From: a virus
Taxonomy: Duplodnaviria; Heunggongvirae; Uroviricota; Caudoviricetes
Virus record (IMG/VR): IMGVR_UViG_2877973648_000003
Length of the DNA stretch: 9,854 nt
Reading direction: 5' to 3' (one strand)
Position 1 is the first letter of the stretch; each line of letters opens with the position of its first letter. The position numbers and the translations under genes were made by a program. The notes beneath the pieces were generated by a model that ran no database searches, had not been told where the DNA came from, and worked only from the letters and a program-made list of their open reading frames with translations. This document shows, in pieces, positions 1 through 5,593 of this stretch.

Positions 1-477
1 TTATTCAAGCAGGCTACGCAACATCCAGGCAGTTTTCTCATGTAACTGGATACGTTGTGTAAGCAGATCTGCTGTGGCTTCATCATTCGCATTATTAACG
101 AGCGGGAACAGGGAGCGTGCAGTTTTAACCACGGTCTCCTGGCCCTGGACAAGATTTTCAATCATGTTTTTTGCTGCCGGAATATCCTTATCTTCATTAA
201 CCGCTGTTAAACGTGAAAATTCATGATATGTGCCGGGCGCGAAGCATCCGAGCGAGCGTATACGTTCAGCGATATCATCAACGGCAGTGGCCAGCTCATT
301 GTATTGATTTTCAAACATTAAATGTAAGCTGTTAAACATGGGGCCAGTTACATTCCAGTGATAGTAATGTGTTTTTATATACAGGGTATAGGTGTCAGCA
401 AGAAGCCGGGACAGGCCGTCTGCAATCTCCACCCGGGATGATTCAGCAATACCAATATCAATGATTTGTTTACTCAT
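1..477 (-). CDS. Dps-family (ferritin-like DNA-protection) protein, 158 aa, apparently host-encoded
   Basis: Complete minus-strand ORF (ATG complement at 475-477, TAA complement at 1-3). The translation has the ferritin-like Dps signature region (HW-N-V-G...F...LH...E) and Dps-like length. SD-like AAGAGG lies upstream of the start. It is not identical to E. coli Dps as I recall it. Confidence 0.8.
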
Positions 478-551
478 AACTACCTCTTACACGGTTTCAG
501 TGGAATATACGATATGCGATTATTCTTTCCGGTCTGAGCAAAACACGCCTC

Positions 552-566
552 AAATTTTTATAATAA
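552..566. other. attL core (lambda-type attachment site, host/prophage junction)
   Basis: AAATTTTTATAATAA followed by GTTGGCATTATAAAAAAGCATTGCTTATCAATTTGTTGCAACGAACAGG matches the recalled lambda attP core and P' arm (lambda core GCTTTTTTATACTAA). The left three bases differ, as expected for a host arm. One C-to-A difference lies in the overlap region (TTTATAA versus TTTATAC). Confidence 0.8.
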
Positions 567-574
567 GTTGGCAT

Positions 575-645
575 TATAAAAAAGCATTGCTTATCAATTT
601 GTTGCAACGAACAGGTCACTATCAGTCAAAATAAAATCATTATTT
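575..645. promoter_or_regulatory. attL P' arm: IHF-type site and Int arm-type binding sites (P'1-P'3)
   Basis: CAGGTCACTAT (612-622), CAGTCAAAAT (623-632) and AAAATCATTAT (about 634-645) fit the Int arm-type consensus. The upstream TTATCAATTTGTTGCAACGAACAGG resembles the lambda H' IHF site. The int stop lies 74 bp from the core, as in lambda. Confidence 0.75.
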
Positions 646-1710
646 GATTTCAATTTTGTCCCACTCCCTGCCTCTGTCATCACGATACTGTGATGCCATG
701 GTGTCCGACTTATGCCCGAGAAGATGTTGAGCAAACTTATCGCTTATCTGCTTCTCATAGAGTCTTGCAGACAAACTGCGCAACTCGTGAAAGGTAGGCG
801 GATCCCCTTCGAAGGAAAGACCTGATGCTTTTCGTGCGCGCATAAAATACCTTGATACTGTGCCGGATGAAAGCGGTTCGCGACGAGTAGATGCAATTAT
901 GGTTTCTCCGCCAAGAATCTCTTTGCATTTATCAAGTGTTTCCTTCATTGATATTCCGAGAGCATCAACATGCAATACTGTTGGGATGGCAATTTTTACG
1001 CCTGTTTTGCTTTGCTCGACATAAAGATATCCATCTACGATATCAGACCACTTCATTTCGCATAAATCACCAACTCGTTGCCCGGTAACAACAGCCAGTT
1101 CCATTGCAAGTCTGAGCCAACATGGTGATGATTCTGCTGCTTGATAAATTTTCAGGTATTCGTCAGCCGTAAGTCTTGATCTCCTTACCTCTGATTTTGC
1201 TGCGCGAGTGGCAGCGACAGGGTTTGTTGTTATATGGCCTTCAGCTATTGCCTCTCGGAATGCATCGCTCAGTGTTGATCTGATTAACTTGGCTGACGCC
1301 GCCTTGCCCTCGTCTATGTATCCATTGAGCATTGCCGCAATTTCTTTTGTGGTGATGTCTTCAAGTGGAGCATCAGGCAGACCCCTCCTTATTGCTTTAA
1401 TTTTGCTCATGTAATTTATGAGTGTCTTCTGCTTGATTCCTCTGCTGGCCAGGATTTTTTCGTAGCGATCAAGCCATGAATGTAACGTAACGGAATTATC
1501 ACTGTTGATTCTCGCTGTCAGAGGCTTGTGTTTGTGTCCTGAAAATAACTCAATGTTGGCCTGTATAGCTTCAGTGATTGCGATTCGCCTGTCTCTGCCT
1601 AATCCAAACTCTTTACCCGTCCTTGGGTCCCTGTAGCAGTAATATCCATTGTTTCTTATATAAAGGTTAGGGGGTAAATCCCGGCGCTCATGACTTCGCC
1701 TTCTTCCCAT
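640..1710 (-). CDS. int: Tyrosine integrase, lambda Int (356 aa)
   Basis: The translation is near-identical to lambda Int as I recall it (MGRRRSHERRDLPPNLYIRNNGYYCYRDPRTGKEF...REWDKIEIK) and has the catalytic R/K/H/R/H/Y residues including the LLGH and Y motif near the C-terminus. It overlaps xis as in lambda and is adjacent to the att site. Confidence 0.97.
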   Translation of the reverse strand: MGRRRSHERRDLPPNLYIRNNGYYCYRDPRTGKEFGLGRDRRIAITEAIQANIELFSGHKHKPLTARINSDNSVTLHSWLDRYEKILASRGIKQKTLINYMSKIKAIRRGLPDAPLEDITTKEIAAMLNGYIDEGKAASAKLIRSTLSDAFREAIAEGHITTNPVAATRAAKSEVRRSRLTADEYLKIYQAAESSPCWLRLAMELAVVTGQRVGDLCEMKWSDIVDGYLYVEQSKTGVKIAIPTVLHVDALGISMKETLDKCKEILGGETIIASTRREPLSSGTVSRYFMRARKASGLSFEGDPPTFHELRSLSARLYEKQISDKFAQHLLGHKSDTMASQYRDDRGREWDKIEIK

Positions 1711-1906
1711 TTCTGATCCTCTTCAAAAGGCTACCTGTTACTGGTCGATTTAAGTCAACCTTTACCGCTGATTCGTGGAACAGATACTCTCTTCCATCCT
1801 TAACCGGAGGAGGGAATATCCTGCACTCGCGTACCCATCGACGAACTGTTTCAAGGCTTCTTGGGCGTCGCTGGCGTGCGTTCCACTCCTGAAGTGTCAA
1901 GTACAT
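1688..1906 (-). CDS. xis: Excisionase Xis (72 aa)
   Basis: MYLTLQEWNARQRRPRSLETVRRWVRECRIFPPPVKDGREYLFHESAVKVDLNRPVTGSLLKRIRNGKKAKS matches lambda Xis in sequence and length. Its 3' end overlaps the int start. Confidence 0.95.
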   Translation of the reverse strand: MYLTLQEWNARQRRPRSLETVRRWVRECRIFPPPVKDGREYLFHESAVKVDLNRPVTGSLLKRIRNGKKAKS

Positions 1907-1930
1907 CGCAAAGTCTCCGCAATTACACGC

Positions 1931-1953
1931 AAGAAAAAACCGCCATCAGGCGG
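1931..1953 (-). terminator. Putative intrinsic terminator (5-bp GC stem CCGCC/GGCGG, 4-nt loop, then six Us on the minus strand)
   Basis: On the minus strand: GCCGCCUGAUGGCGG followed by UUUUUUCUU. The stop codon of the 55-codon ORF sits in the loop. The stem is short, so confidence is moderate. Confidence 0.4.
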
Positions 1954-2113
1954 CTTGGTGTTCTTTCAGTTCTTCAATTCGAATATTGGTTACGTCTGCA
2001 TGTGCTATCTGCGCCCATATCATCCAGTGGTTATAACAGTCGTTGATGTTCTCTGCTTCGATAACCCTGTTGAATGGCTCTCCATTCCATTCACCTGTGA
2101 CTCGGAAGTGCAT
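1946..2113 (-). CDS. Small hypothetical protein (55 aa), positional counterpart of the lambda small ORF next to xis
   Basis: Found by my own translation; it is below the size cutoff of the ORF track. MHFRVTGEWNGEPFNRVIEAENINDCYNHWMIWAQIAHADVTNIRIEELKEHQAA. Same size and position as the lambda 55-codon ORF right of xis. Confidence 0.6.
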   Translation of the reverse strand: MHFRVTGEWNGEPFNRVIEAENINDCYNHWMIWAQIAHADVTNIRIEELKEHQAA

Positions 2114-2124
2114 TTATCATCTCC

Positions 2125-2151
2125 ATAAAACAAAACTCGCCGTAGCGAGTT
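2125..2151 (-). terminator. Putative intrinsic terminator downstream of the 142-aa gene
   Basis: On the minus strand: AACUCGC-UACG-GCGAGUU (7-bp stem) followed by UUGUUUUAU. It lies between the stop of the 142-aa ORF (2197) and the start of the 55-codon ORF (2113). Confidence 0.5.
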
Positions 2152-2196
2152 CAGATATAATTTCCACCAAAGGCAGTAGTTGCTTGATGCTAAGAA

Positions 2197-2625
2197 TTAT
2201 TCAATATCTATTCCTGTAATCTCTTTTATCTTTTTCCTTGCAAAGCCTTTTGCTAGTGATTTTGAAACACTCATAAGTGTACTAATTCCCTCATCCTTAA
2301 AGTTTGTTTTTATAGCTTGCCAGACATCCTTTTGACGTAAGTCAGCAATAAAATCATGCCCTCTTGCTGTCAACCTCAGTGGTACTTCGATCCAACTATA
2401 TCCAACACCTTCCCCTAACGCTTTGGACAATATATGACCGAACCCAGGTTTTCCATCAACCCTGACTATTAATTCGTAGTCACATAATAATCGCATATGG
2501 AAAATAAAATCTTGGTCATATCTATTAAAGCCATTATCCTCTAGTTCACTAAGCATCGTGTCAGGGCCACGAGTTTTTTCGAATGCGATAAGTAGATCTT
2601 TTAGATATTGCTGGTCTAATTTCAT
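2197..2625 (-). CDS. Hypothetical protein, 142 aa, AT-rich accessory (moron-like) gene of unknown function
   Basis: Clean ORF with a strong SD (GGAGGCG) 5-7 nt upstream of the ATG. Base composition is visibly more AT-rich than the flanking lambda-like genes (by eye, not computed). No signal peptide or TM segment is evident. I do not recognise the family with confidence. Confidence 0.6.
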   Translation of the reverse strand: MKLDQQYLKDLLIAFEKTRGPDTMLSELEDNGFNRYDQDFIFHMRLLCDYELIVRVDGKPGFGHILSKALGEGVGYSWIEVPLRLTARGHDFIADLRQKDVWQAIKTNFKDEGISTLMSVSKSLAKGFARKKIKEITGIDIE

Positions 2626-2635
2626 TGCCGCCTCC

Positions 2636-2647
2636 GTGACATGTCAC
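2636..2647. promoter_or_regulatory. Perfect 12-bp palindrome GTGACATGTCAC in the 28-bp gap between the 112-aa and 142-aa genes
   Basis: Read directly from the sequence: the motif equals its own reverse complement. It sits just upstream of the SD of the 142-aa gene. Confidence 0.35.
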
Positions 2648-2653
2648 AGAGAT

Positions 2654-2992
2654 TTATATCATTAATTTTGTTTCGTGCCAGCCTTTGGTCACCCAGCATT
2701 GTGAGTCACCATTACACGGGCATGAATTAACAGGAACTCTCTCGCCGCACTTACCGCACCGTTTTCTGCTGATCGATTTTATACGCCAGCGCACACGTGC
2801 ATCATCCTGGCGGCTCAGTAACGCGATGTACTCACCAAACTCGCAAGGCGCACGCCTGAAGCGACGCGTGGCACAGTTACGCTCCAGCATTTCAATTTCC
2901 TGAGCATCAAGTACAAGCTCCAGCTTACGCATACCGGATGATGCTTGCTTGGCTCTCTGATCGGCTTTGTGCTCTGTTGCTGATTTAGCCAT
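2654..2992 (-). CDS. Small basic Cys-rich protein (112 aa), probable zinc-ribbon; occupies the position of lambda ea8.5
   Basis: ORF with an SD-like AGGAAAA upstream. The C-terminal part has CGKCG...CPC...C spacing typical of a zinc ribbon. Base composition resembles the lambda-like backbone. Any identity with Ea8.5 is positional inference only. Confidence 0.55.
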   Translation of the reverse strand: MAKSATEHKADQRAKQASSGMRKLELVLDAQEIEMLERNCATRRFRRAPCEFGEYIALLSRQDDARVRWRIKSISRKRCGKCGERVPVNSCPCNGDSQCWVTKGWHETKLMI

Positions 2993-3188
2993 TCTGCTTT
3001 TCCTGCATCAGGAGAAAGACAATCATGGCGGCGCGGATACTTCCGGTATCTTTATACGCGATATTCCCCTTCAATGGCACATACAAGAAGAGAGCCATCA
3101 ACAGGAGTGATTGAGGAATCGACAACCAGCAACGCTTAATTATCTATAGTGTCGTATTTGCTTCATAAAATATGGCGAATAACACAAA

Positions 3189-3220
3189 GCCCGCAGCAGC
3201 TCATTGTGCGGGCTTTTCTT
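3189..3220 (-). terminator. Putative bidirectional intrinsic terminator (GCCCGCA...TGCGGGC, 7-bp stem) downstream of the secreted-protein gene
   Basis: Stem 3189-3195 pairs with 3207-3213 around an 11-nt loop. It is followed by TTTTCTT on the plus strand and UUUGUGUU on the minus strand, about 70 nt past the stop at 3286. Confidence 0.55.
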
Positions 3221-3285
3221 ATACCTACTTCCTAGAGATAATTCTATGGAGGCATTAAATCAATACTGTCATTGGTAATATCATA

Positions 3286-3900
3286 TTATCTAAAAGTCTT
3301 TCCACTTTTAACATCTAGGTATATTCTGTTCGACAACGTCATTCCTCCGCAATATGTGAAATAGATGTTTTCACCCTTATTGCTTGATGCCATCCACCCT
3401 CCGATTTCCTTAAAATCGCTTTCCGTGCAGACCCCTTCATTTATTAACTTCCTAGCTGCCGAAGAAAACTCTTTTTTGTATATACGGTAGTCATCAGATC
3501 CTTTGATTAAAGTATCATCTCCGCTCGCATTTTCAGCAGGATCTGATGGCCTTTCACTGCTAAGATCACTAAATTTAACCCATTCTGAAAACTTGCCATT
3601 AACGATTCCATTTTTTCTTGTGCAGGATTTATTACCTTCTTTAATATATTCGCTTTCCCCTCCAACACATGAGGCTGAATATGGCTCAGTTATACGAACC
3701 CATTCACCTTTTTTTTCTAGAAAATCTACGCCTTCCCTGAAAAATAGTTTCCCAGCCACTCCACATTTACTTGAAGGGCAGGTATGTCTTTCCGTTCGAT
3801 CAACAACAACCCATAGTTTTGATTCATTTTTTGCCATTGCCGATGGTATTTGAGATGAGACAATTAACGTAAGCCCTAAAATTAGTATTGATTTTTTCAT
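3286..3900 (-). CDS. Secreted or periplasmic Cys-rich protein, 204 aa, unknown function (AT-rich moron)
   Basis: N-terminus MKKSILILGLTLIVSSQIPSAMA-KNE is a classical Sec signal peptide with an AXA cleavage motif. The mature part is hydrophilic with about 8 Cys. SD AAGGAAA lies 6-7 nt upstream of the ATG. The gene is AT-rich and has its own terminator. It does not match Bor, Lom or Cor as I recall them. Confidence 0.7.
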   Translation of the reverse strand: MKKSILILGLTLIVSSQIPSAMAKNESKLWVVVDRTERHTCPSSKCGVAGKLFFREGVDFLEKKGEWVRITEPYSASCVGGESEYIKEGNKSCTRKNGIVNGKFSEWVKFSDLSSERPSDPAENASGDDTLIKGSDDYRIYKKEFSSAARKLINEGVCTESDFKEIGGWMASSNKGENIYFTYCGGMTLSNRIYLDVKSGKTFR

Positions 3901-4198
3901 TGTAATTTCCTTTTACTTTTTACAAAGCGTTTAATCATGGCTGATTATCTCTAAGTGTAGTAACAGCCTTGTGCGAAACATGTTACCAAATCGCCATTTC
4001 AGTGTATCCGCAGTTAGGCTGCCACTTCAAGGATTCCTAATTACATGGTACGTAAGCGTAAAATCCCGTTGGTTGGCGGGTAATAACTCTGATCAAATCT
4101 CCCTTGTCTTTTGCTCTTACGTATGCAGCTCTTGTGTATTCAACCCAGGCCTCCAGTTCAGCAATACGCTTACTTCCATCCGAGATAACACCTTCTAC

Positions 4199-4450
4199 TC
4201 ACGCTGCTCGTTGAGTTTTGATTTTTGCTGTCTCCAGCTCAACACGCAGTTTCCCCACCGTTAGCGCAATATCCTCGTTCTCCTGGTCGCGGCGTTTGAT
4301 GTATTGCTGGTTTCTTTCCCGTTCATCCAGCAGTGTCAGCACAATCGATGGTGTTACCAGCTCATGGAAAAGGTCCGCGTCAAATCCCCAGTTGTCAGGC
4401 ATTGCCTGCTCTGCCGCTTCACGCAGTGCCTGAGAGTGAATTACGCTCAC
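4199..4450 (-). CDS. ea22: Ea22-like protein, N-terminal segment (83 aa) ending at an in-frame TGA; the reading frame stays open for 53 further codons (4040-4198) to a TAG at 4037-4039
   Basis: MSVIHSQALREAAEQAMPDNWGFDADLFHELVTPSIVLTLLDERERNQQYIKRRDQENEDIALTVGKLRVELETAKIKTQRAA resembles the lambda Ea22 N-terminus as I recall it. After the TGA, the same frame reads VEGVISDGSKRIAELEAWVEYTRAAYVRAKDKGDLIRVITRQPTGFYAYVPCN. Its 3' end overlaps the start of the TraR-like gene. Confidence 0.55.
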   Translation of the reverse strand: MSVIHSQALREAAEQAMPDNWGFDADLFHELVTPSIVLTLLDERERNQQYIKRRDQENEDIALTVGKLRVELETAKIKTQRAA

Positions 4451-5058: not shown

Positions 5059-5250
5059 TCATACCTGGTCTCTCTCATCTGCTTCTGCTTTCGCCACCAT
5101 CATTTCCAGCTTTTGTGAAAGGGATGCGGCTAACGTATGAAATTCTTCGTCTGTTTCTACTGGTATTGGCACAAACCTGACTCCAATTTGAGCGAGGCTA
5201 TGTGCCATCTCGATACACGTTCTTAACTCAACAGGAGATGCTTTGTGCAT
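5059..5250 (-). CDS. Small early-left-operon protein, 63 aa (lambda orf63-like)
   Basis: 63-aa ORF with a G-rich SD (GGGGGG) upstream. Size and position match lambda orf63. Confidence 0.6.
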   Translation of the reverse strand: MHKASPVELRTCIEMAHSLAQIGVRFVPIPVETDEEFHTLAASLSQKLEMMVAKAEADERDQV

Positions 5251-5368
5251 ACAGCCCCCCGTTTATTATTTATCTCCTCAGCCAGCCGCTGTGCTTTCAG
5301 GGGATTTCTGATAACAGAAAGGCCGGGAAATACCCAGCCTCGCTTTGTAACGGAGTAGACGAAAGTGA

Positions 5369-5593
5369 TCGCACCTACCGGAAACAACGCGCGGCGCTCT
5401 TTACTCGTTCGTCTATAACGTGGGCGCAGGCAATTTCAGAACATCTACTCTTCTTCGCAAAATAAACCAGGGCGATATCAAGGGCGCATGTGACCAGCTA
5501 CGTCGCTGGGCATACGCTGGCGGTAAGCAATGGAAAGGCCTGATGACTCGTCGTGAGATTGAGCGTGAGGTCTGTTTGTGGGGGCAACAATGA
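5369..5593 (+). pseudogene. 3' remnant of an endolysin gene (T4-type/P21-type lysozyme R); N-terminal catalytic part absent and frameshifted upstream
   Basis: In-frame translation ...[71 protein letters not shown] matches the C-terminus of E. coli cryptic-prophage lysozymes as I recall them. There is no start codon. An in-frame TGA at 5366-5368 and a shifted frame lie upstream. The stop overlaps the Rz start (ATGA). Confidence 0.75.

Follow-up and report, generated by a model that had tools for sequence, protein, structure and literature searches.

The exo-xis region of phage lambda is transcribed from pL, and its genes (ea8.5, orf60a, orf61, orf63 and ea22) influence lysogenisation and induction (PMC4195576; PMC3824215). 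They are small and non-essential, and the same is true of the gene described here, which codes for a protein with a DUF2513 domain. Lambdoid phages also carry morons, autonomous extra genes such as bor in lambda and gp15 in HK97. Yet another point of comparison is the lactococcal AbiT system, which consists of the two proteins AbiTi and AbiTii (PMC13064643). The DUF2513 gene resembles all of these in some respects and differs from each of them in others.

In the window, by which we mean the whole stretch of 9,854 nucleotides that was analysed, positions 601–2161 correspond to lambda 27773–29333 at 98.9% identity, and the lambda homology resumes at position 4152 (lambda 30094). Because the match stops at 2161 and restarts at 4152, the segment 2162–4151 takes the place of ea8.5 and the 5′ part of ea22, to judge from the alignment. 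The DUF2513 gene occupies the exact ea8.5 position, contrary to the earlier note on this DNA, which had assumed that lambda has only a short gap at this site and had put the preceding gene in the ea8.5 position. That gene, coding for a protein of 112 amino acids, is unrelated to Ea8.5, with which it gives no BLASTP alignment at all, and two further foreign genes accompany the pair in the replaced segment. Like the exo-xis genes of lambda, the DUF2513 gene lies immediately promoter-proximal to the orf55 junction box, in the same orientation and in the pL operon, on the same strand as the preceding gene of the early-left operon and 28 nt behind it. [quoted passage not shown]

Sequence comparison places the module that carries the gene between two mosaic joints, at about 2162–2660 on the minus strand, and not at 2125–2653 as delimited before. 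The lambda homology ends at 2161 on the left, and on the right the homology of the 112-aa gene to epsilon15-like phages (phiV10/TL-2011b) starts at 2661. A terminator scan of 1600–4200 gave seven terminator-like sites against 1.7 expected from shuffled sequences, and one of these, a hairpin followed by a T-run at 2133–2152 on the minus strand, is the structure that had been described as the gene's own terminator. The hairpin is there, but it lies outside the inserted module, within the segment that is 98.9% identical to lambda. It is contained in a 47-bp box (2111–2157) that recurs at 93–95% identity in Stx2 phages and in the Salmonella phages c341 and ST104, where according to the phage records it stands upstream of differing genes. 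Since it belongs to the lambda-identical backbone and to a box common to other phages, the hairpin is a conserved lambdoid junction box and not the DUF2513 gene's own terminator; downstream of the gene the window holds no other hairpin with a T-run. The diversity of genes in this slot is taken from the phage records; an exact look-up of the orf55 protein is allele-specific and gave the same arrangement only. The locus is a clean example of lambdoid mosaicism at short conserved junction boxes.

The ORF of 142 amino acids is present as previously noted, at 2197–2625 on the minus strand (ORF list; Pfam PF10711; PHROG 585), and is intact over its 429 bp. Direct reading of the sequence also confirms the strong Shine-Dalgarno sequence, GGAGG at 2631–2635 on the minus strand, 5 nt 5′ of the ATG, of which GGAG is kept at homologous loci in the cross-genus comparison. 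With a GC content of 36.6% (GC3 29%), the gene is clearly poorer in GC than int, xis, orf55 and the 112-aa gene (45–50%), as had been claimed, and thus differs in base composition from the surrounding phage genes. A search at E ≤ 1e-3 recovered 95 homologues conserved over their full length, an exhaustive search yielded 1410 DUF2513 clusters, and dN between genera is 0.15–0.20, with dS at saturation. Given this conservation, the 142-codon ORF is a genuine, intact gene, and a chance ORF is excluded. Within E. coli, dN/dS is approximately 0.7, a value that comes from 12 differences only and is uninterpretable alone.

The signals for transcription are less clear. A promoter scan of the minus strand across 1600–4200 found no promoter-like site, and a relaxed scan, in which T was required at the last −10 position, reached only 8/12 matches at best. 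By hand we read a weak and doubtful candidate at 2653–2681 on the minus strand, reported by neither scan, with a −35 element CTGGCA (2681–2676), a 17-nt spacer and an extended −10 element TGaTATAAA (2658–2653). This candidate and the stop codon of the upstream gene overlap. E. mori, Cronobacter and Pantoea show a comparable arrangement, while TL-2011b is without the TATAAA. The description of the module as a self-contained unit is thus true only in part: neither scan gave a promoter, the gap to the upstream gene is only 28 nt and the terminator is shared. We also considered a predicted RNA hairpin of 9 bp at 2631–2652 on the minus strand (dG −10.8 kcal/mol, z −3.0), the 3′ arm of which pairs with the Shine-Dalgarno sequence. 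Only the E. coli allele forms it strongly; in Serratia, E. mori and Yersinia it is weak or missing, and it was therefore rejected as a conserved regulator. A search of the whole window against Rfam gave no match. The window itself is a decayed prophage remnant, in which the gene may not be expressed.

The protein matches Pfam family PF10711 (E 8.5e-11; 42.5 bits against a gathering cut-off of 29.6), with residues 2–115 aligned to profile positions 1–100 of 100, and PHROG 585 (E 2.8e-34), with residues 1–134 on profile positions 1–126 of 128. It already bears the RefSeq name “DUF2513 domain-containing protein.” Members of this family are phage-associated, have a length of about 135–145 amino acids and display the motifs MKIDxxYLKxLL (N-terminal), FxFHxxLLxD and PLRLTxxGH, all of which applies here as well. 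The protein, which is small and soluble, is an ordinary member of a named but uncharacterised family, and no structural feature sets it apart. Hence, the former opinion that it could not be assigned to a characterised family was true in substance, although it overlooked that the family has a name and the protein an annotation. The profile, sequence and structure searches matched no characterised housekeeping or structural family. No PadR or MarR match was obtained in Pfam at E ≤ 0.1, and PDB searches that used the protein sequence or a profile of 74 sequences gave nothing meaningful, MarR appearing only at E 0.25 in the profile search. Likewise, there was no match for the protein in NCBIfam, nor for the protein or its three neighbours in PADLOC-DB v2 at E ≤ 0.1. 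A literature search for DUF2513, PF10711, the WP accession and YjcQ retrieved nothing relevant and no paper that mentions DUF2513 or PF10711, and the family is not mentioned in two papers on integron defence.

The AlphaFold2 model (pLDDT 93.4; pTM 0.84) predicts a winged helix (residues 1–97) followed by three C-terminal helices, in agreement with the winged helix-turn-helix fold (HTH clan) of the family. The winged-helix part is acidic (pI 5.2) and the C-terminal tail is basic, the recognition helix has a variable N-terminal cap rich in D/E/S, and the wing holds an unusually long insertion of four strands. Variability is highest in helix 2, together with its loops, and in the long wing (residues 63–80), and the differences between E. 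coli alleles are concentrated in these segments, the wing among them. The top structural matches of the model are regulators of the PadR, MarR, TubR and HxlR types, and the structure comparison gave no characterised relative beyond generic MarR/PadR folds. The layout of a winged helix with C-terminal helices is shared with PadR, but there is no profile-level sequence match to PadR or MarR. Furthermore, the DUF2513 protein differs from these regulators in its acidic domain, its acidic recognition-helix cap and its long four-strand wing insertion, and in that some members of the family are fused N-terminally to TIR or AbiTi-like effectors. The acidic winged helix, the variable D/E/S-rich cap and the variable wing suggest binding rather than the reading of DNA.

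The gene upstream, at 2654–2992 on the minus strand, matches PHROG 536, “transcriptional regulator” (E 7e-48), and its protein has a weak match to an NCBIfam LexA-regulated protein (E 0.0068, below the cut-off) and possibly a ribbon-helix-helix N-terminus with a Cys-rich C-terminus. It is a conserved upstream companion of the DUF2513 gene in the Enterobacterales, with homologues of 47–63% identity directly upstream and at the same distance of 28 nt in Yersinia, Cronobacter and Pantoea. The two genes are nevertheless independent: epsilon15-like phages (TL-2011b, ZX5) have the 112-aa gene by itself, right before terS, and in E. coli it is often a pseudogene next to an intact DUF2513 gene. We considered a toxin-antitoxin pair and rejected it on these grounds, as each gene is also found without the other.

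Downstream of the 112-aa stop codon and ahead of the Shine-Dalgarno sequence lies the perfect 12-bp palindrome GTGACATGTCAC (2636–2647), which occurs once in the window where 0.01 occurrences would be expected. It is invariant in E. coli, E. mori, Cronobacter and Pantoea and has one mismatch in Serratia and Yersinia. The same palindrome also follows the homologue of the 112-aa gene in phage TL-2011b, which lacks the DUF2513 gene, and for this reason it is part of the 112-aa gene's 3′ end, where it may act as an operator or an RNA hairpin. The idea that the palindrome is the DUF2513 gene's own operator, with the tail of the 112-aa gene as the carrier of its promoter, was withdrawn because of TL-2011b. 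In the close enterobacterial relatives, the DUF2513 gene evidently entered the 112-aa gene's 3′ UTR, and since then it has moved together with that gene or with its last few codons, which indicates how a gene can ride between phage types in the 3′ UTR of another.

Homologues of the DUF2513 gene were found in a broad range of settings. Among 5426 complete E. coli genomes, 185 contain the gene, as a rule within a prophage that occupies the lambda attachment site (ybhC), as in ATCC 8739, and the isolated phage Chlobot has it too. Homologues are located near int in Serratia and Pantoea, in the Nin region of a prophage, and in the prophage slot between the lysis genes and terS. In several unrelated types of prophage they immediately precede the small terminase gene terS: in Cronobacter, Klebsiella phage ST846-OXA48phi9.2, Citrobacter, Kluyvera, Entomohabitans and Edwardsiella. 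A homologue in Janthinobacterium is near a P2-type portal/terminase, and one in Yersinia phage vB_YpM_39 precedes two unannotated genes, whose size and position, and these only, suggest terS and terL. Outside these phage settings, homologues form single-gene cassettes in Vibrio integrons, flanked by repeats of about 120 nt and by GTTAT cores, and occur downstream of the type I restriction-modification genes hsdM-hsdS-hsdR and beside a second hsdR. No partner conserved across the whole family was found in the neighbourhoods sampled, which comprise about 60 loci, compared with 1410 clusters. From its AT-rich composition, its mosaic joints and the varied settings of its homologues, we conclude that the DUF2513 gene is mobile single-gene cargo that moves between accessory slots of prophages and integrons. 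This bears out the view that the gene is accessory cargo in a variable int-proximal slot, and homologues do occur in the accessory loci of prophages, so that the refuting outcome named in the note did not arise. That lambdoid phages carry exclusion or defence cargo in this region was also noted, and such a function is a fair hypothesis, supported by the domain fusions.

In these fusions, the DUF2513 domain is the N-terminal module of larger proteins. It precedes an AbiTi-like C-terminus in at least 19 clusters, with four more representing longer versions of that architecture, a TIR domain (PF10137; PADLOC PycTIR, PDC-S35) in four clusters, and a PDC-S60-like domain in a single cluster; another single cluster combines AbiEi_4, DUF2513 and an AbiTi-like domain. 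Only the fused relatives match PADLOC models, namely those for TIR, PDC-S35, PDC-S60 and AbiTi, and the TIR and AbiTi-like fusions keep the 135-aa unit complete with its C-terminal helices. Because the AbiTi-like module is also joined to AbiTii and to another winged-helix N-terminus, the N-terminal modules in front of it appear to be interchangeable, as is usual for sensor domains. DUF2513 thus takes the architectural place of AbiTii before an AbiTi-like module. The resemblance to AbiT is at the level of architecture only: DUF2513 and AbiTii are not homologous (hhalign probability 0.3%, DUF2513 alignment against an AbiTii-domain protein). A stand-alone N-terminal module nevertheless has a precedent, since AbiT is split over two proteins. 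Fusions account for about 5% of the top 150 representatives, a minority, and are derived mostly from short metagenomic contigs of other, mostly environmental, taxa.

We tentatively favor the hypothesis that the DUF2513 protein is a non-catalytic binding or sensor protein that acts in phage conflict. The 112-aa gene, the DUF2513 gene and two further foreign genes have taken the place of ea8.5 and the beginning of ea22 in the exo-xis part of a lambda-type early-left operon, so that the DUF2513 gene would most simply be transcribed from pL during infection or induction, with an internal promoter being possible. Its product, which is without a catalytic domain, would work by binding, and in the larger proteins the same domain would be the interchangeable N-terminal sensor or adaptor of abortive-infection-style proteins that end in TIR, AbiTi-like or PDC-S60-like effectors. 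As the module is the N-terminal, swappable part of these fusions, we infer that the stand-alone protein recognises a macromolecule derived from phage or host. Such binding could serve in conflicts between phages or between phage and host, in exclusion or a process related to abortive infection, and the protein could act on its own or need a partner from another locus. We consider it possible, though rather doubtful, that DUF2513 is the recognition module of an undescribed set of abortive-infection proteins (-TIR, -AbiTi-like and -PDC-S60-like), the stand-alone form being a minimal single-gene anti-phage or anti-defence factor that binds a phage component via its hypervariable wing. If a role in conflict is true, a family of more than 1400 sequence clusters gains a function, and a compact winged-helix sensor module joins the building blocks of defence; if it is wrong, the gene simply adds to the small accessory regulators of the exo-xis region, which is poorly understood.

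Several observations speak against a role in conflict. PADLOC identified no effector or AbiTi-like protein among the neighbours of the gene in the window, the position in a lytic early operon with no promoter detected fits poorly with the protection of a lysogen, the fusions are few, and the protein itself has no match in PADLOC or NCBIfam. Integron cassettes and prophage slots hold many kinds of genes, so the setting says little. The PadR-like layout and the conserved palindrome just upstream also agree with a PadR- or MarR-like dimeric DNA-binding regulator, which would bind a palindromic operator (GTGACATGTCAC or elsewhere) and tune phage development like the exo-xis genes. We think this unlikely. 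In its favor, the best structural matches are regulators, the gene sits in the ea8.5 slot of a pL-transcribed region whose genes affect lysogenisation and induction, the palindrome is kept across genera, and the family motif PLRLTxxGH fits LTxxG, the usual wing-strand pattern of PadR/MarR-type regulators. The winged-helix domain is however acidic, its recognition helix begins with Asp/Glu, and the palindrome goes with the 112-aa gene. Moreover, its half-sites are 6 bp apart, and a typical winged-helix dimer needs them to be farther apart. Promoterless integron cassettes, restriction-modification neighbours and fusions to TIR and AbiTi-like domains would also be unexpected for a dedicated phage regulator.

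The position in a pL-driven early lytic operon, with no promoter of its own detected, also agrees with the protein being an anti-defence decoy, that is, an early-expressed stand-alone copy of the sensor that titrates the trigger of host DUF2513-effector proteins or poisons their oligomers. The retention of the whole 135-aa unit in the TIR and AbiTi-like fusions and the concentration of allele differences in the wing agree with such an activity. We nevertheless judge a decoy to be quite improbable, because the stand-alone forms greatly outnumber the fusions, E. coli and its relatives yielded no DUF2513-effector fusion, and stand-alone copies in chromosomal integron cassettes and beside restriction-modification operons make little sense for a decoy. 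Still more improbable is a role as an accessory factor in DNA packaging or late functions. It is brought to mind by the copies directly upstream of terS named above, the copy that precedes the presumed terS and terL of vB_YpM_39, the one near the Janthinobacterium portal/terminase, and the companion 112-aa gene immediately upstream of terS in epsilon15-like phages. Yet accessory genes are classically inserted at the junction of the lysis genes with terS, and this accounts for the position. The copies in E. coli, Serratia and Pantoea lie in the early-left arm, far from terS, those in integrons and at restriction-modification loci have no terminase nearby, and related phages package their DNA without the gene.

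Considered against the described classes of phage genes, the DUF2513 gene is an accessory gene of a known family and not a new kind of element. The suggestion that it is a candidate moron is supported by its foreign base composition, but the copy in the window replaces ea8.5 rather than being added to the genome, no promoter was detected for it and its terminator is part of the shared backbone. The classic geometry of a moron is instead seen in Cronobacter prophages, where the DUF2513 gene stands as an additional gene between two genes, the 112-aa gene and terS, that are direct neighbours in TL-2011b and ZX5. The subclade found between the lysis genes and terS has its own hairpin and T-run downstream and a conserved extended −10-like element upstream.

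The 142-aa ORF at 2197-2625 (-), here called the DUF2513 gene, encodes a typical member of a protein family that has a name already but is still uncharacterised. Its product matched Pfam DUF2513 (PF10711) with 42.5 bits against a gathering threshold of 29.6 and PHROG 585, annotated as function unknown, with an E-value of 2.8e-34, and its RefSeq name is already “DUF2513 domain-containing protein.” The earlier note had placed it in no characterised family. This holds insofar as the PADLOC and NCBIfam profiles gave zero matches and a PDB sequence search, a 74-sequence profile included, recovered no relative, but it does not hold for membership in DUF2513 and PHROG 585. A literature search found no paper naming DUF2513 or PF10711. 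Homologs conserved over the full length were numerous (95 at E<=1e-3 in an indexed search and 1410 clusters in an exhaustive search), and in comparisons between genera dN was 0.15-0.20 with dS saturated; the ORF is not a chance ORF.

An AlphaFold2 model (pLDDT 93.4, pTM 0.84; 42-sequence alignment) predicts an N-terminal part consisting of helix 5-16, a short strand and helices 25-30 and 38-49, followed by a long wing of four strands (53-85), which closes with the family motif PLRLTxxGH, and by C-terminal helices at 87-97, 99-108 and 114-137. The winged-helix part (residues 1-97) is acidic, with a net charge of -4 and a pI of 5.2; the tail is basic. The best conserved elements are helices 1, 3, 4 and 5 and the PLRLT strand. 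Helix 2 and its loops and residues 63-80 of the wing are the least conserved, and the few differences among the E. coli alleles cluster there as well.

Although the gene itself is real, several of the anatomical claims made for it in the earlier note fail. The ORF, its strong SD (GGAGG at 2631-2635, 5 nt from the ATG) and its lower GC content (36.6%, GC3 29%, versus 45-50% in int, xis, orf55 and the 112-aa gene directly upstream) were all borne out. The position was however said to be a short gap in lambda, whereas window 2162-4151 replaces ea8.5 and the beginning of ea22: lambda 27773-29333 corresponds to window 601-2161 at 98.9% identity, and the homology picks up again only from 4152 (lambda 30094, within ea22). 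The slot of ea8.5 is occupied exactly by the 142-aa gene, and neither its product nor the 112-aa protein, whose gene had been placed at the ea8.5 position, is related to Ea8.5. The foreign module extends from 2162 to about 2660, from where there is 90% homology to the epsilon15-like phages phiV10 and TL-2011b.

Likewise, the hairpin with a T-run at 2133-2152 (-) exists, but it sits within the lambda-identical segment and is not the gene's own. It is contained in a 47-bp box (2111-2157) with 93-95% identity in Stx2 phages and the Salmonella phages c341 and ST104, where the box precedes differing genes, and it is a shared junction rather than the terminator of the DUF2513 gene. A second hairpin box (1930-1997) falls where P22 has its annotated aI terminator, and in Sf6 it adjoins the annotated boundary sequence bsq2. 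The two boxes, each with a hairpin and a T-run, are 93-98% identical in otherwise unrelated lambdoid and P22-like phages, and the mosaic joints coincide with their edges, which illustrates recombination at such boxes.

In the close enterobacterial clade, the 112-aa gene (2654-2992, -) is a recurrent upstream neighbor of DUF2513. Homologs with 47-63% identity stand at the same 28-nt distance ahead of DUF2513 in Yersinia, Cronobacter and Pantoea, and only about the last ten codons are left before DUF2513 in Serratia and Enterobacter mori. Between the two genes, at 2636-2647, lies a perfect 12-bp palindrome, GTGACATGTCAC (one match in the window versus 0.01 expected), which is invariant or almost so in the genera with this arrangement. 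In TL-2011b, which lacks DUF2513, the 112-aa gene is directly upstream of the small terminase gene (terS), with the palindrome at its stop codon followed by a terminator, repeats and terS; in Cronobacter, DUF2513 is placed precisely between this palindrome and this terminator. The simplest history would have two steps: DUF2513 entered the 3' UTR behind the 112-aa coding sequence, becoming an additional gene between two that are neighbors in related phages, and recombination later moved the pair, or DUF2513 with a 112-aa stub, to other slots, among them the ea8.5 position in this window. The pairing is not obligatory: in E. coli the 112-aa gene has frequently decayed to a pseudogene beside an intact DUF2513, and each gene also occurs alone.

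We also considered the palindrome as an operator or leader of DUF2513 itself, a reading that we dropped since TL-2011b has it without DUF2513. The 112-aa protein, also encoded at 3494-3832 in retrieved locus L088 and at 2994-3332 in L089, matches PHROG 536 (“transcriptional regulator”); its N-terminus may form a ribbon-helix-helix, and its C-terminus is Cys-rich. Its gene lies immediately upstream of terS in the epsilon15-like phage ZX5 as in TL-2011b, with GTGACATGTCAC, the terminator and direct repeats (tattaccac...) in between, and the protein may regulate late genes or the packaging site.

The DUF2513 gene was found in 185 of 5426 complete E. coli genomes, invariably in the order int-xis-orf55-DUF2513-112 aa. 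Elsewhere, it was identified in the early-left arm beside int (Serratia, Pantoea), in the Nin region (Serratia nematodiphila) and directly upstream of the small terminase gene (Cronobacter, Klebsiella phage ST846-OXA48phi9.2, Citrobacter, Kluyvera, Entomohabitans, Edwardsiella and probably Yersinia phage vB_YpM_39, whose downstream genes carry no annotation), as expected for the accessory loci proposed earlier. Further copies are integron cassettes of one gene each in Vibrio cholerae and other vibrios, with GTTAT cores and ~120-nt repeats on their flanks, belong to a same-strand array of small ORFs in Teredinibacter, or lie next to a P2-type portal and terminase in Janthinobacterium; in two gammaproteobacterial genomes the gene directly follows hsdM-hsdS-hsdR or has another hsdR and an FRG-domain gene nearby. 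A comparison of these neighborhoods gave no partner gene conserved across the whole family.

Nearly all copies are stand-alone proteins of 117-149 aa, and the sole functional lead is the domain architecture of the exceptions. A search seeded with a fused relative recovered at least 19 clusters of ~250 aa in which DUF2513 precedes a C-terminal module matching PADLOC AbiTi and PDC-M14B, and four more with longer versions of this architecture. Furthermore, four clusters have a TIR domain (PF10137; PADLOC PycTIR and PDC-S35 matched) after DUF2513, one has a PDC-S60-like domain in this place, and one has the order AbiEi_4, DUF2513 and AbiTi-like module. AbiT is a lactococcal abortive-infection system of two proteins (PMC13064643). 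The AbiTi-like module also follows an AbiTii domain (PF18864), which is not homologous to DUF2513 (hhalign probability 0.3%), and another winged-helix N-terminus; thus, the N-terminal modules are interchangeable before a constant effector-like module, the arrangement one would expect if they were sensor or adaptor domains of abortive-infection proteins. An N-terminal module of ~230 aa, the third kind and unnamed, with a winged-helix-like end and no match in Pfam, is fused to the AbiTi-like domain (clusters P0320, P0363 and ~30 more), and these fusions may represent another uncharacterised abortive-infection-type family.

[quoted passage not shown] A promoter scan gave zero promoter-like sites on its strand, the best in a relaxed scan having only 8/12 matches. 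A candidate read by hand (-35 CTGGCA at 2681-2676, 17-nt spacer, TGaTATAAA at 2658-2653) recurs in a similar layout in E. mori, Cronobacter and Pantoea; it overlaps coding sequence, its TATAAA is missing from TL-2011b, and we consider it doubtful. A predicted 9-bp hairpin (-10.8 kcal/mol, z -3.0) pairs the SD in the E. coli allele but is not conserved beyond it. The scan also marked a promoter-like CTGACT-18-AATAAT on the antisense strand (2462-2491, +), with a weak hairpin and T-run ~65 nt on (2556-2580), which could give an ~80-nt antisense RNA across codons 15-43; as the region shows no excess of promoter-like sites, this one may be due to chance in AT-rich DNA.

A more distant subclade, located between lysis genes and terS, matches the description of a moron more closely: there the DUF2513 gene has its own hairpin-T-run terminator and, in 6/8 loci, a conserved upstream element with TGtGATAAT. 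This non-coding element, GGCATTCACTGAGTGCCTGTGATAATGCTAAATTA (6940-6990 in L007, with equivalent sites in L024, L028, L029, L031 and L032), has an inverted repeat, CAGGCA-N9-TGCCTG, overlapping the extended -10-like TGtGATAAT. It was not flagged by the promoter scan and could be a regulated promoter.

We tentatively favor the hypothesis, at somewhat short of an even chance, that the DUF2513 protein is a non-catalytic binding protein in phage conflict, because of the domain architecture, the autonomous mobility, the integron and restriction-modification contexts and the acidic, variable putative binding surfaces. The evidence against it is substantial: the fusions are a minority found in other taxa, no defence model recognises the 142-aa protein itself, no effector is encoded near the gene here, and an early lytic operon is an odd home for a gene that protects the lysogen. 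A PadR-like regulator of phage development, the main rival, agrees with the fold and the exo-xis location, and we consider it possible if rather unlikely.

An anti-defence decoy, clearly unlikely in our view, would be compatible with early expression but not with the integron and restriction-modification contexts. The repeated position upstream of terS, also a classic insertion site for accessory genes, is the sole hint of a role in packaging, which we regard as highly improbable. Of the earlier moron proposal, a real gene remains, with accessory or conflict cargo a fair candidate, and the supposed terminator becomes a shared lambda-type junction. The family is large, unstudied and easily tested, and its fusions now connect it with TIR and AbiTi-like effectors.

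Taken as a whole, the window represents the decayed arm of a lambda-type prophage. Its minus strand carries, in this order, a gene of the Dps family (1-477), int (640-1710) and xis (1688-1906) of the lambda type, a small homologue of lambda orf55 (1946-2113), the DUF2513 and 112-aa genes, an AT-rich 204-aa ORF (3286-3900) and genes or fragments for Ea22, a DksA/TraR zinc-finger protein, DUF1382 and DUF1317; beyond a deletion joint lie lysis genes, trkG, a ynaK fragment and tail-fibre genes. The 204-aa ORF (GC 37.9%) has a Sec-type signal peptide, MKKSILILGLTLIVSSQIPSAMA, a weak SH3_3 match and a match to PHROG 8310 (annotated unknown function), and a hairpin with a T-run just downstream (~3190-3225) resembles a terminator of its own; the picture of a moron or lysogenic conversion gene suits it better than the DUF2513 gene.

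At the deletion joint (5223-5593), the DUF1317 gene (5223-5387, -) abuts a 5'-truncated rrrD lysozyme fragment (~5375-5593, +), so that the prophage lacks its entire immunity, replication and Nin region; its early-left arm runs straight into Rac/DLP12-like lysis genes, trkG, the ynaK fragment and tail-fibre genes. An intact version of this arm is carried by the isolated phage Chlobot and by prophages that occupy the lambda attachment site beside ybhC, for example in E. coli ATCC 8739. Window-identical DNA is present in E. coli chromosomes and large plasmids, one copy lying between IS26 and ISAs1. Beyond int (window 1-640; L001 1-7600 and 16900-17900), the Dps-family gene is followed by ArsR, an FAD-oxidoreductase and IS elements rather than by ybhC, the customary lambda attB neighbor, and the identical block is also carried by plasmids of 145-454 kb, from which we infer that the prophage remnant was relocated inside a larger IS-bounded segment.
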